From the IMG/VR virus record IMGVR_UViG_3300007177_000042: DNA of 64,000 bases; one strand, 5' to 3'. The stretch is from a virus (lineage: Duplodnaviria; Caudoviricetes). Under the pieces are notes generated by a model that worked only from the letters and a program-made list of their open reading frames with translations, ran no database searches and was not told the DNA's origin. Numbering within the stretch: position 1 is the first letter of the stretch; every line of letters starts with the position of its first letter. The position numbers and the translations under genes were made by a program. Shown here one piece after another: positions 11,823 to 40,295 of this stretch.

Positions 11823-12341
11823 TTACTTGGCAAAGTTCAACTTCCTGAACTTGATGGCACGAATCGAATCCATCTTGAGAGTGATAACCGGCTGCTTGAA
11901 GTCACCCCAATCCTTCTCAGGAATAAAGGCCTTCATCTTGGTAACTTCCTCCTCAGTCAGCTCCCGACCATTCAGAACATACTTGGTTCCCTTGGTCCGA
12001 TGAGGAAAGAACTGAAGGTATTTCTGGTCCGGGTTCTTCTTGGAAAAACACAGCGGAGTGACCTTGCCATCGTTGGTGGTCTCATGCAGATACCACGTCT
12101 CGCCACCCTCGTAGTTCGCCTCAACACCAGCCTCCTTCATCCGACGATTCACTCGAGCCTCATGGTTCACATTCACCAAACCATTGCGCCGGGTAACCTT
12201 CACAGCACCCACAAAAGGATTGCCAGTCTTGCGCATCTTCACTTCGGTCTCAGTCTCGAGCGTCACAAACTGACACTCAGTGCCGAGAATACGGAGGAAG
12301 GTAACCAATTCGCTGTTGTCTTTGATAGTGATCGTCTTCAC
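11823..12341 (-). CDS. Conserved phage hypothetical protein
   Basis: GTG start at 12341 preceded on the minus strand by TTGAAA-N16-TAGTCT. Confidence 0.7.
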   Translation of the reverse strand: MKTITIKDNSELVTFLRILGTECQFVTLETETEVKMRKTGNPFVGAVKVTRRNGLVNVNHEARVNRRMKEAGVEANYEGGETWYLHETTNDGKVTPLCFSKKNPDQKYLQFFPHRTKGTKYVLNGRELTEEEVTKMKAFIPEKDWGDFKQPVITLKMDSIRAIKFRKLNFAK

Positions 12342-12556
12342 GGGTAAAAGACTACCAGATGATGTCCATCTTTCAACAAATAAAAGCCGCCGGGTGCCAC
12401 ATAAATGCCTTGACATATACCACCACCCACCAATCCCCATACACATCCATATCACCTTGTCAATACCTTTCTTCAGTTTCCGCGTATGCTCAAACATACA
12501 CTTTGTTCAAAATATGCCTTGTATATACGCCAACACCTGATACTCTGTTCTCCGAC

Positions 12557-12733
12557 ATGAATAAGAACATCGTCCGCTACAACGTCACCAAAAACCTCCA
12601 AACTCCCATGAACCTCCGCATCAGCCTCGACACTCGCCTTCGCCGCTCTCATGTCACCCGTGTCGCCCGTGACTACGCACATCTTCGTGAATCCATGGGT
12701 GACCTCACTGTCAAGAACTGGGACAACCTCTAA
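12557..12733 (+). CDS. Small basic protein
   Basis: ATG 12557 after a promoter-like TGATACTCT; 3' part of the track ORF. Confidence 0.5.
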   Translation: MNKNIVRYNVTKNLQTPMNLRISLDTRLRRSHVTRVARDYAHLRESMGDLTVKNWDNL

Positions 12734-17047: not shown

Positions 17048-17137
17048 GCCAACATGACCCGAATGGCTAAGGGCCCTGTTTTGTAAACAGGTATGAGGTA
17101 AAACTCTTTGTCGGTTCAAGTCCGACTGTTGGCTCCA
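17048..17137 (+). tRNA. tRNA-Thr(UGU) with long variable arm
   Basis: GCCAACA/TGTTGGC-T-CCA; loop TTTGTAA; V arm GAGGTAAAACTC. Confidence 0.85.
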
Positions 17138-26189: not shown

Positions 26190-26417
26190 GTGGTGTTTCA
26201 CTTCAACAAGGCACATCTGAATGATAATAATATTCCGATGTGGGTTTTAAAAACAAAAGGCGAGACACATTATGTCAATCATGTGATTGCTAATGTTGGG
26301 TGGTCTACAAAAGAAACACCTGATAATAATCATACCAAAGGCAGTCTTAAGTTTAAGAATGTCGATGTGATTATTGATGAACAGAACGAGGCAACAATTT
26401 CTGCGGCTGTAGCTTAA
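26190..26417 (+). CDS. Conserved phage hypothetical protein
   Basis: FHFNK...PMWVLKTKGETHYVNHV...TKETPDN.HTKGS; 3' end overlaps the suppressor tRNA. Confidence 0.7.
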   Translation: MVFHFNKAHLNDNNIPMWVLKTKGETHYVNHVIANVGWSTKETPDNNHTKGSLKFKNVDVIIDEQNEATISAAVA

Positions 26418-26478
26418 CGGTATAAAGCAGTCGTCTCTAAAACGACCAATATGGGTTCGAATCCCATCAGGCGCACCA
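26403..26478 (+). tRNA. Amber suppressor tRNA (anticodon CUA)
   Basis: GTCGT-CTCTAAA-ACGAC; canonical D and T arms; A73-CCA; one G:G mismatch in the acceptor stem. Confidence 0.85.
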
Positions 26479-26634: not shown

Positions 26635-27565
26635 ACAATAAGAATTCGATGGAGTTGAGACTGTAGCTCAACTTAAAAGAGTGACTAGGAACCGAATCCA
26701 TCAAATCGTTCTTTGTAAGAAACAAGATTTGGGGTGCTTGAACTCCATATAAGATAGTGAGTAGTAATACTCATGAAAGAGGTAATCCCCTAACGGATCC
26801 TCGCCTTCGCAAGAAGGACAGTCAAGCAACTGGCAATGTCTGTGACTTTCATCCAAAAGGTGGAAGTATATCCGACGCTGGATCGACAAATGATAACTGA
26901 GGGTAACACTGTAAGTTGTCTACTAACGGTACCGCCGAGCACTGTTGATTCCTTAAGTGGAACAGCCACGAATAAGACACAAGCCAAAGATACGGGTGTG
27001 AGACCGCAATCAAATGCTCGTATGTAGATTGATAGAAAGTGGGCAGGGTAACCAGAACACAATCTTGAAAATCGGTGAAGTATCCGCAAGAGAAACACAT
27101 GTGGTGTGTCGCATATTGTATCCCAAAAGGGTATGAAACGACAAACAACGCACATCACGGTTAGGTGCATAATTAGCTCAATGGTAGAGCAATTCCTTTG
27201 TACGGAATATGTTATTGGTTCAAATCCAGTATTATATTAAAAACGCAAAGTCGTTGTTTGTCTAAGATGAAAGTGACTTAACTCTGTGACCGAAAGGTAA
27301 CACAGACAACGAAACATCCGCAAGATGCTAGTTGTTAATTGGAGTCTGAACGGAGTCCGCAAGACTTAACTGCTCGCAAGGCAGACGGTTGGATGAAGGT
27401 TGAATAGTCTTAGGTTAAGGTTGAAAAGCCACAACCCTAAAAAGGCAGTCATGTTGAATACAGTTATAGACGCAAGTCGTAACCGTGGATATGTTGGGAA
27501 GCCGATCCGCAAGATTGGTATAATCTAACTAAAGGTCAACAGATAAAGCGGTAATCTCACGCCAA
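26635..27565 (+). ncRNA. GOLLD-like giant ornate RNA (about 930 nt)
   Basis: ORF-poor; many GCAA/GAAA tetraloop hairpins; terminal GCG-GTAATCTCA-CGC hairpin recalled as a GOLLD 3' signature; promoter TTGACG...TAAGAT upstream; tRNA-array context. Confidence 0.7.
27167..27238 (+). tRNA. Degenerate tRNA-Thr(UGU) embedded in the GOLLD-like RNA
   Basis: D arm GCTC/GAGC; ATTCC-TTTGTAC-GGAAT; T arm; weak acceptor stem, no CCA. Confidence 0.6.
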
Positions 27566-36522: not shown

Positions 36523-36596
36523 TGGGGATTTGCATAATGGTAGTGCAGGAGACTTTGGATCTCTTAGTGAAGGTTCGATTCCTTCATCCCCTGCCA
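36523..36596 (+). tRNA. tRNA-Gln(UUG)
   Basis: Loop CTTTGGA. Confidence 0.92.
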
Positions 36597-37585: not shown

Positions 37586-37607
37586 ATTTTGTTACTATTT
37601 ATACAAT

Positions 37608-37967
37608 ATGATAAAAGCAATCTTAACAAGTATGTTATTGTCCATATCAGTAATGGCATCAGAAAAAACATTGTTGAGTGAGGTTATAGATTTGACCAAA
37701 GAGAAAATTTCAAATGAAATCATTGTTGATTATATCAAGACGAAACCATTGTTGATTAAGTTATCTGCTCAGAATATAATTGAATTAAAGAAAGAAAAAG
37801 TTGATGATGCGGTTGTGAAATTTTTGATTCAAAAGTCTGAGTATGAAGAGAAGATTAAACTGGTGTTGGATAACTATGACAAAATAGTTGAATATAACAA
37901 CTACATATATTTTCAAAAAACATATTTGGAGCCGAGAGCAAAAGCTATGGCTGTCAAATATAATTGA
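37608..37967 (+). CDS. Secreted hypothetical protein
   Basis: Signal peptide; LSEVIDLTKEKISNEIIVDYIK...LSAQNIIELKKEKVDDAVVKFL. Confidence 0.7.
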   Translation: MIKAILTSMLLSISVMASEKTLLSEVIDLTKEKISNEIIVDYIKTKPLLIKLSAQNIIELKKEKVDDAVVKFLIQKSEYEEKIKLVLDNYDKIVEYNNYIYFQKTYLEPRAKAMAVKYN

Positions 37968-37968
37968 A

Positions 37969-38283
37969 TTTGACACAAGTGACTCTACGCTGGTGTAAAT
38001 AACACTAGAGGAAGTTCGCTGCTGCACAGCAGATGATTGGGAGGACATAAGTTAACTTCAAATTGCCCACAACGATTAAAAGATTGCAATTCCGTGGAAG
38101 CAAGGAGCAATCCGGTTAACCTCAGTCCGTTAAAACCACAAATTAGCAGTAATCCTAAATAACCCGAGTGTAGTGCTGCACGTTGAAGGGTGAGGTTGGA
38201 GCAGTTGTTTTTAACGAACAACCAGTAGTAATACTGAGAGAAATGTAGGGATAAAACAGAACAGCGGCTATGGCTGTGTCAAA
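37969..38283 (+). ncRNA. rnpB: RNase P RNA (divergent)
   Basis: P1 TTTGACACA/TGTGTCAAA; P2 CTCTAC/GTAGGG; P3 hairpin; CR-I GAGGAAGTTCGCTG (38008) pairs with CR-V ACAGAACAGCGGCTA (P4 with bulged U); P18-like CAGTA-GTAA-TACTG followed by AGAGAAATG. Confidence 0.78.
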
Positions 38284-38376
38284 AATCTTGTGGTGGTTTG
38301 ACCACGGCGTGAGGGACACGATACACCCCTGTATGTCTGACCCGGACGAAACGACCCGTAAGGGTAGGGTTGAATT

Positions 38377-38589
38377 TTGATGAAAACATACAAGTTAACA
38401 GAGCTTAAAGCCGGAGAAAAAGGGCGAATTGTTGAAGTTAACATTGATAGTCAACGGTTAAAAGAACTTGGCATTATTCGTGGTGCAATTATAACCGTAG
38501 TTACAAACAATTTAATTTGTATGATTTGTAATACCCGAATTTGTTTGGGTAAACCGATGACAGACAATATCATCGTTGAAAAGATGTGA
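38377..38589 (+). CDS. feoA: FeoA-family protein
   Basis: LTELKAGEKGRIVEV...QRLKELGIIRGAIITV...RICLG. Confidence 0.75.
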   Translation: MMKTYKLTELKAGEKGRIVEVNIDSQRLKELGIIRGAIITVVTNNLICMICNTRICLGKPMTDNIIVEKM

Positions 38590-38650
38590 TCGTTGGTGTA
38601 TAGAATTATAGCACGCTACACGTTGAGAGGGTAGAGGAGATCGAAGTTGA

Positions 38651-38689
38651 CGGGTTAGACATTATCAGGAACGTTTCGTGAAATCCCCG
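38651..38689 (+). ncRNA. wwAGA/GAAC/GTGAAATC motif RNA, copy 7 (in a larger element at about 38605-38716)
   Basis: CGGG-TTAGA-CATTATCAG-GAAC-GTTTC-GTGAAATC-CCCG. Confidence 0.7.
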
Positions 38690-38849
38690 TATATTCGCAA
38701 GTCACGGTCATCCAATTTCACAAACACCCGATTGGAGGATTCCTTAAGGGTTTGGGCGCATGTGCCGCACAGCTTTTTAGCGTATAATAGCACGGTTTGT
38801 GAATGTTTTCTTTTGACAAACACTATATATTGGTGTATGTTGTTTTTAT

Positions 38850-39911: not shown

Positions 39912-40295
39912 GGGCGTGTACTGGTTTCGATTCAAAAATGTAGGTGTGCTAGGCACGTAGAGGACGATAGTTGGCCTCTTTAATCATCTATCAAAATATA
40001 ACTGCTAACAAGAAGAGCAAAGTAGTAAGCTACGACTTCACTTCCCGTGAGGCCGTTGCTCTCGCAGCCTAAGTTGCTGCACATCTTTTATGATGATGTC
40101 TGATAATTGTAAAAGATGATAAACATCAGGCTAGATAACAATTTGTTTGGGATTGTTGTTGATCTTCTACCAGACACCATCAACATAAAGTTTGTTGTTT
40201 TAGATTTGTGTTGATGTAACAAAAAACAACTAAGCGTGTAGTCTGGTATACTTTAAGTTTTGAAGACGCGAGTTCGACTCTCGCCACGTCCACCA
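39912..40295 (+). ncRNA. ssrA: tmRNA
   Basis: GGGCGTG/CACGTCC-A-CCA with G3-U70; T arm; tag (A)ANKKSKVVSYDFTSREAVALAA* at 40004-40072. Confidence 0.95.

Follow-up and report, generated by a model that had tools for sequence, protein, structure and literature searches.

The stretch of DNA analysed here (the window) comprises 64,000 nt, corresponding to bases 40906–104905 of the 107,737-bp IMG/VR virus record IMGVR_UViG_3300007177_000042, and codes for a baseplate wedge and a homologue of a head protein. CheckV completeness of the source record is 31%, implying a genome of roughly at least 300 kb. Its RNA genes include 35 tRNAs, of which 34 carry an encoded CCA and which stand in runs with spacers of 3–10 nt, together with a transfer-messenger RNA (tmRNA; 39912–40295) and a GOLLD RNA (27101–27563). 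Between an open reading frame (ORF) of 119 aa (stop at 37967) and a FeoA ORF (start at 38377) lies a 409-nt gap free of ORFs, and within it, at 37969–38283 (+), an element that the initial annotation took for a phage-encoded form of RNase P RNA, the ribozyme responsible for trimming precursor tRNAs, with a remodelled specificity domain (S-domain). This identification is supported: the core is intact, and the S-domain is in fact drastically reduced. The element is probably a genuine, transcribed RNase P RNA of bacterial type-A descent, found once per genome inside the tRNA operons of a set of large phages from fresh water and aquaculture.

Family and homology to RNase P RNA

Related phages were chosen through a shared baseplate protein, and BLAST of the element into their records returned a full-length homologue in one (G002, 73% identity), a shorter one in a second (G017) and an internal block only in a third (G011). 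Pattern scans of IMG/VR identified the RNA family on 40 contigs, representing 34 unique sequences; because the first conserved region (CR-I) was part of the search pattern, its invariance in the family is by construction. In all of 31 records, a covariance model of the family's 3' half, built from the window's subgroup (hereafter R2), found the element exactly once; among these records are a 365-kb genome (100% complete) and a 304-kb one (89%). Co-directional tRNA genes accompany the element at all 34 family loci, and several elements start 1–2 nt past an encoded tRNA CCA or stop a few nucleotides before the next tRNA.

Judged by sequence comparison, the window RNA is tied to RNase P RNA by homology through its family and not by its own copy, because 11 of 20 relatives match Rfam, align with the window copy and are matched by R2. 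These relatives were cut out as ~480-nt loci and scanned alone against Rfam, and the 11 matched RF00010, RF00373 or RF00011 over the full length (model ends 1–367 or 1–288), on the correct strand and in the correct place, with 25–47 bits and E-values of 1e-3 to 3e-11. RF00010 was matched at 44.1 bits (E = 3e-11) by three members, including the copy from the complete 365-kb genome, and at 40.6 bits by another; RF00373 was matched at 47.1 (E = 5e-11), 39.3, 37.9, 36.4, 34 and 25 bits, and RF00011 at 25 bits. The window copy aligns block for block with the relatives matched by Rfam, and R2 matches the Rfam-scoring relatives at E = 3e-13 to 5e-14.

Structure of the catalytic and specificity domains

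The structure of the element is visible only through comparison across the family. Single-sequence minimum-free-energy folding of the window element was unremarkable (z = −1.2), and RNAalifold on a mixed alignment (covariance model R1) recovered only 3 pairs; R1 was not used. We took an alignment of 29 unique members in which only the interior of one variable insert was trimmed, wrote the helix model on the window sequence and counted pairs per position across the alignment. As an empirical null with the same phylogeny, all 19,042 variable column pairs were ranked by mutual information (MI) after average product correction. Model pairs made up 28 of the 40 top-ranked column pairs; of the 54 model pairs that vary, 35 fell within the top 1% (top 190 of 19,042). 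Covariation was found in P1, P2, P3, P12, P15, P16, P17 and both hairpins in the P18 position.

With the RF00010 consensus line for E. coli rnpB as the topology reference, we found the helix order of the family to be that of the bacterial type-A catalytic domain: P1–P2, P3, J3/4–P4, P5, P6, P15–P17 and an L15 GGU, followed by an optional hairpin, J18/2, P2 3', J2/4, P4 3' and P1 3' (Table 1). Short blocks follow one another in canonical order, namely GAGGAA(A)GU[CU]CG, GCAA-P15-AAAUAG, CGGGU, AGAUAAAUG and ACAGAAC..CGGCU(U)A. Set against their canonical counterparts, GAGGAAGUUCG corresponds to GAGGAAAGUCCG, CGGGU[UA] to CGGGUA, AGAUAAAUG to AGAUGAAUG and ACAGAAC..CGGCUA to ACAGAACCCGGCUUA, and the GCAA-P15-AAAUAG block is identical to the canonical one in one member (L100). 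The CR-V block (ACAGAA..CGGCUA at 38256–38270) matches the consensus, as does CR-I save for one compensated position, and in alignment A2 the A-A-U of J18/2 and C-G-G-C-U-A are invariant.

P1, P2, P3 and the CR-I and CR-V blocks had been recognized in the initial annotation; all are present, and the three helices covary in 29 homologues. P1 shows compensatory variants (GACAC/GUGUC, GUCG/CGAC, CUAG/CUAG and GCCG/CGGC), with three of its pairs among the top 52 of 19,042 column pairs. All 6 positions of P2 are paired in 27–28 of 28 sequences with 3–4 pair types each (MI ranks 11, 12, 19, 27 and 50), and P3 has up to 6 pair types per position and ranges in size from 5-nt loops to ~60-nt extensions among members. 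P4, with its bulged U, is formed between a GNAANNUCNGNG-like CR-I and a ACNNNANNNNGNNUA-like CR-V, the arrangement expected of the universal core. It had been described as rewritten but compensated, and the pairing stands: the proximal part is invariant in the family, and the three distal pairs, the only ones that vary, occur in 29/29, 29/29 and 27/29 members with 3–4 pair types (MI ranks 1, 10 and 21). The supposed peculiarity does not, since the distal part varies in the family and a compensated distal change also occurs in 1 of 30 canonical references (CCGAGC with CUCGG); the 'rewritten' P4 is therefore ordinary variation.

P5 had been placed at CTGCA/TGTAG, but of 29 sequences only 4, 1, 9, 18 and 15 form the respective five pairs, and TGTAG is part of the local P17 hairpin. 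At the true P5 (Table 1), all 29 sequences pair at 4 of 4 positions; the helix shows up to three pair types (MI ranks 5, 22 and 24) and variants CAUC/GAUG, CACC/GGUG, CUCU/AGAG and CUUC/GAAG. The P6 pseudoknot is likewise paired at 5 of 5 positions in 29/29 (MI rank 9); its first pair is C–G in 17 sequences, A–U in 10, U–A in 1 and G–C in 1, and the helix reads UAGAA/UUCUA in L129. P15 covaries (UCC/GGA, CCC/GGG, GUGC/GCAC and GCC/GGU; MI ranks 28, 38 and 95), and pairs of P16 and P17 rank 2 and 23 and 3 and 8, respectively. In bacterial RNase P the GGU of L15 pairs with the tRNA 3'-CCA; here GGU lies at 38194–38196 and is held at the aligned position by 28 of 29 members, so that the same pairing is predicted.

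The P18 claimed earlier corresponds to a GNRA-capped hairpin in the P18 position, preceded by a second hairpin. Both covary, the tetraloop is GCAA in L001, and six minimal members (L100, L123, L137, L139, L140 and L143) have neither. Among the features tested for type A, the P1–P2–P3 stack, P5, and P15–P16–P17 with P6 (J5/7–L17) were all found, each with compensatory changes. The whole catalytic domain is thus kept: P1–P5 with the bulged-U P4, J2/4, J5/15, J18/2, P15–P17, P6 and the L15 GGU.

A full type-A specificity domain was not found in the window copy. Between the 5' strand of P6 and the 3' strand of P5, the S-domain consists only of P7 (3–4 bp), a GG/CC pairing, an A-rich internal loop and a hairpin; the invariant GG/CC is read as P10, and the hairpin, whose closing pairs covary, is called P12. 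The internal loop is asymmetric, with GA opposite GUUAAUA, and lines up with the canonical gGc-AA-aCCC strand. The complete 3' side matches in order the canonical gGc-AA-aCCC-Caccc strand that precedes P5 3', with a family consensus of C-G-N-U-A-A-N-A-C-C-A-C. The register of P7 was set by MI (columns 134/175 rank 4 and 135/174 rank 35), and on the basis of this ranking a GAUU/AAUU register was replaced; P7 variants include GCG/CGU in L084 and AACC/GGUU in L104. The part of the S-domain that reads the tRNA elbow is lost: the window copy is without P8, P9, P13 and P14 and without the CR-II/CR-III T-loop module, as neither an ACAGARA (CR-II) block, the absence of which had been noticed before, nor a GGGUGAAA (CR-III) block is present.

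Two suggestions of the initial annotation found no support. Non-canonical tRNA elbows are not evident, the standard tRNA model being passed by 32 phage tRNAs, and complementation in trans by free module RNAs is unsupported, with the 84-nt module that fills P12 occurring once in the window's own genome.

Table 1. Coordinates and pairing partners of the RNase P-like RNA in the window and of a diverged counterpart in LR756508.1
Feature	Position (strand)	Pairing or remark
P1 5' strand	37969..37977 (+)	9 bp with 38275–38283
P2 5' strand CUCUAC	37983..37988 (+)	Pairs with 38245–38250 GUAGGG
P3 hairpin CUGGUGU/ACACUAG	37990..38008 (+)	Strands 37990–96/38002–08
CR-I/J3/4 and P4 5' strand, GAGGAAGUUCG-CUG	38008..38021 (+)	CR-I block GAGGAAGUUCG at 38008–18; canonical GAGGAAAGUCCGGG
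P4 long-range helix	38013–21/38262–69 (+)	Bulged U at 38015
P5 5' strand CUGC	38022..38025 (+)	Pairs with 38146–38149 GCAG
P6 5' strand CAGCA	38027..38031 (+)	Pseudoknot with P17 loop 38174–38178 UGCUG
S-domain 5' side: P7 (G-AU), linker, P10 GG, GGGAG frame	38032..38043 (+)	
84-nt module, tip of P12 stub	38044..38127 (+)	Closing pairs GAC/GUC
S-domain 3' side CGUUAAAACCAC (A-rich loop, P10 CC), then P7 3' AUU	38128..38145 (+)	
P5 3' GCAG, J5/15 UAA, P15 5' UCC, L15 5' UAAAUA	38146..38161 (+)	Canonical GgaG-CAA-ggcc-AAAUAGG
P16 ACCC/GGGU around P17 hairpin GUG/CAC	38162..38191 (+)	P17 loop forms P6
L15 3' side GAGGUU, then P15 3' strand GGA	38192..38200 (+)	Canonical CGGGUA
Two P18-position hairpins	38204..38236 (+)	38204–22 (loop UUUAACGA); 38223–36 (GUAA tetraloop)
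J18/2 AGAGAAAU, P2 3', J2/4 AUAAAACAGAA, P4 3' CAGCGGCU, A	38237..38270 (+)	Canonical AGAugAAUG ... ACAGAACCCGGCUUA
P1 3' strand	38275..38283 (+)	Similarity to L001 and to RNA-library variants ends right after
LR756508.1 mini RNase P-like RNA	L212:1403–1612 (~76016–76225)	By eye P1, CR-I, P4, P5, P6, CR-V
LR756508.1 helices		P1 AAGGUCUA/UAGACCUU; CR-I GAGGAAGCUC; P4 UCUAGA/UCUAGG; P6 CCGCUC/GAGCGG

The interior of the P12 hairpin ranges from 8 to 133 nt across the other members. In a natural variant that is 99% identical on both sides, ACUUAAACGU (10 nt) replaces the 84-nt module, which was therefore gained or lost recently. The core 20-mer of the module occurs in only six IMG/VR contigs, five of them family members and the sixth G011, a complete 296-kb phage. 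There the module (92% identity) lies in a ~380-nt ORF-free stretch (G011:C1:~234330–234710, equal to L083:1400–1780; also L204:~12270–12650) within the frame UUGGGAG[module]CG-ACCAAUG, with possible long-range pairings GUUCG/CGAAC and CGGCAU/AUGCCG, and the ~380-nt RNA is also present in a metatranscriptome contig. This stretch has no Rfam match, R2 finds no match in G011 genome-wide, and no tRNA lies within ~15 kb; the RNA may be a much more distant relative or have no kinship with the family. Based on the absence of the module from the 99%-identical variant and its presence in an RNA of a phage that lacks both the family and nearby tRNAs, the P12 stub could serve to dock interchangeable structured modules, mobile between RNAs and between phages, that would stand in for the lost elbow-reading S-domain and re-aim the ribozyme at particular substrates, although we regard this as doubtful.

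Inserts in other members were examined as well. In L109 (11295–11453, −), the 133-nt P12 insert holds an ORF of 52 aa (48 aa from the ATG) with zinc-ribbon-like CPKC and CPDC motifs, so that a helix of an RNase P RNA would here contain a protein-coding insert. The inserts of L116 and L147 share GGAAGGG(U/C)GAAAUAAAGGGG, a sequence similar to the J12/13 (CR-III) block of canonical RNAs, GUAAGGGUGAAA, so that a true remnant of the S-domain may persist in some members. L116 has no recognizable CR-V, yet it matches RF00011 at 25 bits.

Distribution, transcripts and neighbouring RNAs

Parts of the stretch are present in six RNA-seq runs, and four metatranscriptomes from three studies were aligned to 37600–38700. 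Metatranscriptome contigs were found only on 37969–38339, with none on the upstream ORF or the FeoA gene. Two RNA contigs begin to match exactly at 37969, after different upstream sequence ending in ..CCCCUGCCAUUU, which is a tRNA 3' end like that at 36596. At the other end, two matches stop at 38283, one at the end of the contig and one continuing into unrelated sequence, and other matches extend to 38314 or 38339. A promoter and terminator scan around the element gave counts no higher than background.

Beyond the pattern-scan family, BLAST of the window element and two other members against 50,697 GenBank phage records matched none, and R2 found no copy in G011, G004–G007, Microcystis phage Mel-JY01 or Flavobacterium phage immuto. 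A weak R2 match (E = 0.12) was obtained in the unannotated 484-kb uncultured huge phage LR756508.1, where an RNase P-like RNA (Table 1) lies 12 nt upstream of a tRNA-Ser and is more diverged than the IMG/VR family. One family member resides on a 203-kb contig binned in a Cellvibrionaceae metagenome-assembled genome; the same bin has, on a different contig, a normal RF00010 gene (311 bits), which makes the phage-type gene there an additional copy. Of nine loci that were new in a scan with a 3' CR-V pattern (L126–L134), all except L129 were rejected as chance matches in coding DNA, as was L135, a chance match in GC-rich coding DNA. In full-text literature searches, we did not find a phage- or virus-encoded RNase P RNA described.

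The sequences around the element have features of their own. In RNA-library variants a tRNA 3' end (..CCCCUGCCA) is joined to the element via UUU only, which suggests that the 1.37-kb segment 36597–37968, lying between tRNA-Gln (36523–36596) and the RNase P RNA and holding ORFs of 80 and 119 aa, is an insertion specific to the window's phage. A/U-UUU(A/U) follows nearly every encoded CCA in the window (for example, at 17137, 35242 and 36433), and the 5' start of the RNA, UUUGAC, resembles these tRNA 3' flanks, so that a shared processing or spacer signal may be involved. Directly downstream, 38377–38589 encodes a stand-alone 70-aa FeoA-domain protein (Pfam E = 9e-13).

A small RNA with the motif CCCGAAAGG..CCGUAAGGG directly follows the element in at least 10 of 30 members. 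It lies in the ~100–120 nt after the element in L099, L103, L108, L109, L110, L129, L138, L144 and L148, and in L109, L120, L144 and L148 the downstream RNA is closed by a long stem and ends in ..CACC(A), like an acceptor stem. In the window, the core motif of this small RNA occurs at ~38348–38366, within the interval 38284–38376 that the initial annotation labelled a feoA leader.

Elsewhere in the window, the GOLLD RNA scores 212 bits and embeds a tRNA-like unit (27167–27238) that is the sole tRNA call without an encoded CCA. The tRNA at 26403–26478 has a CUA anticodon (amber suppressor; labelled tRNA-Pyl by ARAGORN) with counterparts in the related phages L099 and L108. Other unassigned RNAs are also present besides the tmRNA and GOLLD.

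Interpretation and comparison with known RNase P RNAs

Several results weigh against the identification as a functional RNase P RNA. No Rfam RNase P model matches the window copy, whether at gathering thresholds, at E ≤ 10 over 1.1 kb, or for the element by itself with filters at their laxest and E ≤ 10, and RF00010 gave 0 candidates over the whole 108-kb record. The relatives' scores of 25–47 bits are far under the gathering scores of 84–100, an nhmmer profile of 30 canonical type-A RNAs reached a best E-value of 0.38 against all phage loci, and R2, run with filters off against 28 canonical RNase P loci, returned nothing significant. With the tRNA-elbow motif absent, efficiency and fidelity on tRNAs are uncertain. 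The assembled metatranscriptome contigs attest presence in RNA libraries, not RNA ends, levels or abundance. Finally, the absence of an rnpA gene (PF00825) from four related records (G000, G002, G011 and G017) comes mostly from incomplete genomes, the sole complete one, G011, being without the RNA family. The initial annotation had called for a search with RNase P models and named the lack of a hit, along with lack of cleavage, as refuting its claim; formally no hit is the outcome for the window copy, yet this is overturned because relatives in the family match the Rfam RNase P clan.

One alternative is that the RNA derives from RNase P RNA but cleaves poorly and acts as a decoy or regulator, titrating host RnpA or binding CCA-ended precursors and so biasing host tRNA maturation to the advantage of the phage. 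The loss of the elbow-reading modules fits such a role, as does the lack of a detected phage rnpA, which would put the RNA in competition with the host M1 RNA over RnpA. However, the J3/4 adenosines, the bulged U, the ACAGAA of J2/4, J5/15, the L15 GGU and P6 are conserved or covarying, and a protein sponge needs none of them; moreover, RNase P RNAs without an S-domain are known to be active (PMC5839562, PMC3579882). We consider a decoy unlikely.

The ribozyme could also be active but retargeted to clients other than tRNAs, such as ACCA-ended small RNAs, tmRNA or GOLLD-embedded tRNA-like units, with the P12 modules selecting among them. Candidate clients are at hand, both in the stalk-closed RNA directly after at least 10 of 30 members, with its ..CACC(A) end in four of them (L109, L120, L144 and L148), and in the tmRNA, GOLLD and other unassigned RNAs of the window, and P12 inserts differ widely among otherwise similar copies. 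Yet tRNAs are by far the commonest neighbouring genes, no module–substrate pairing has been shown for any candidate, and the 84-nt module is dispensable in the 99%-identical variant, all of which makes retargeting quite improbable. That the element is not a functional gene but a decaying piece of a host rnpB, or only resembles RNase P RNA by chance, as the missing Rfam match of the window copy and the apparent lack of CR-V in L116 might suggest, is very improbable and already contradicted by covariation, given that compensatory change maintains the helices in 29 diverged copies, one conserved copy is kept per phage genome, the RNA but not its flanks appears in RNA libraries, and relatives have significant Rfam matches.

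The favoured reading is a genuine phage RNase P RNA. As far as comparison with known families allows, the RNA is a virus-borne, S-domain-reduced variant of a known ribozyme, for which cleavage activity is predicted. It would be cut from a polycistronic tRNA precursor through processing of the neighbouring tRNAs and would partner with the host RnpA protein, a partner proposed because no phage rnpA was found. The resulting enzyme would remove the 5' leaders of the phage's ~35 CCA-encoding pre-tRNAs and of the tmRNA precursor, holding its substrates mainly by the acceptor stem, the CCA–L15 pairing and protein–leader contacts and not by T-loop measuring. The P12 stub would be a tolerant site that gains and loses structured modules, here one of 84 nt.

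Bacterial type A (RF00010; E. coli M1/rnpB) shares its architecture with the phage RNA: the helix order and topology of the catalytic domain are the same, the single-stranded blocks are in place, and the phage RNA has a 6-bp P2, a 3-nt J5/15, the L15 GGU, P6 and a GNRA hairpin before J18/2, with relatives reaching 40–44 bits against RF00010 (E = 3e-11 to 5e-10) over the full length. Unlike type A, the phage RNA is virus-encoded within a tRNA operon and AU-rich, is without P8, P9, P13, P14 and CR-II/CR-III, and scores under the gathering threshold, with no match at all for the window copy. In addition, its J3/4–P4 is shorter by one A–U pair (on both strands) and has U·G in place of C70–G, it has an extra hairpin with the loop UUUAACGR, and its P12 is a stub bearing interchangeable inserts.

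The type T RNA of the Thermoproteaceae (RF02357) is a natural RNase P RNA with a conventional catalytic domain but with most of the S-domain missing. In it P2 is 3 bp and J5/15 2 nt long, P15 is shortened, and several archaeal proteins act as partners (PMC3579882). Its P10 ends in a small loop, as in the minimal phage members L123, L124 and L143. In contrast, the phage RNA has the longer, bacterial P2 and J5/15 given above together with P6 and the L15 GGU, likewise bacterial features, the set of type-T features was not found in it, and no match to RF02357 was reported in any Rfam scan of the element or its relatives. The similarity is one of convergent reduction, not membership.

The catalytic domain of the E. 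coli RNA alone (the construct Eco CP RPR) is active, with an efficiency that depends on P6-type pairing and with P18 dispensable (PMC5839562). The phage family shows the same pattern, keeping P6 in 29/29 members and dropping the P18-position hairpins in six, but it is natural and evolutionarily maintained and retains a P7–P10–P12 stub, often with inserts. In bacteria of the candidate phyla radiation, RNase P RNAs are detectable only below Rfam noise cut-offs, need manual refolding and have lost P12–P14, P18 or the P15 motif (PMC8172020). Those RNAs are the sole essential cellular copies, whereas the phage RNA is an extra, virus-borne one.

RNase P RNA is considered a housekeeping ribozyme universal to cells. 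If carried by a virus, it would add to the translation-related functions of large phages, which include tRNAs and tmRNA, the very enzyme that brings these RNAs to maturity. Nature would moreover have tested, in this family, how minimal the bacterial ribozyme can become, with the catalytic domain and P6 kept under selection, the elbow domain discarded and P18 optional, and the parts retained and lost agree with in vitro deletion studies (PMC5839562). Because current Rfam models miss the window copy, such genes go unannotated in phage genomes, which constitutes a blind spot. Lastly, the swappable P12 insert offers a tractable case of modular RNA evolution.

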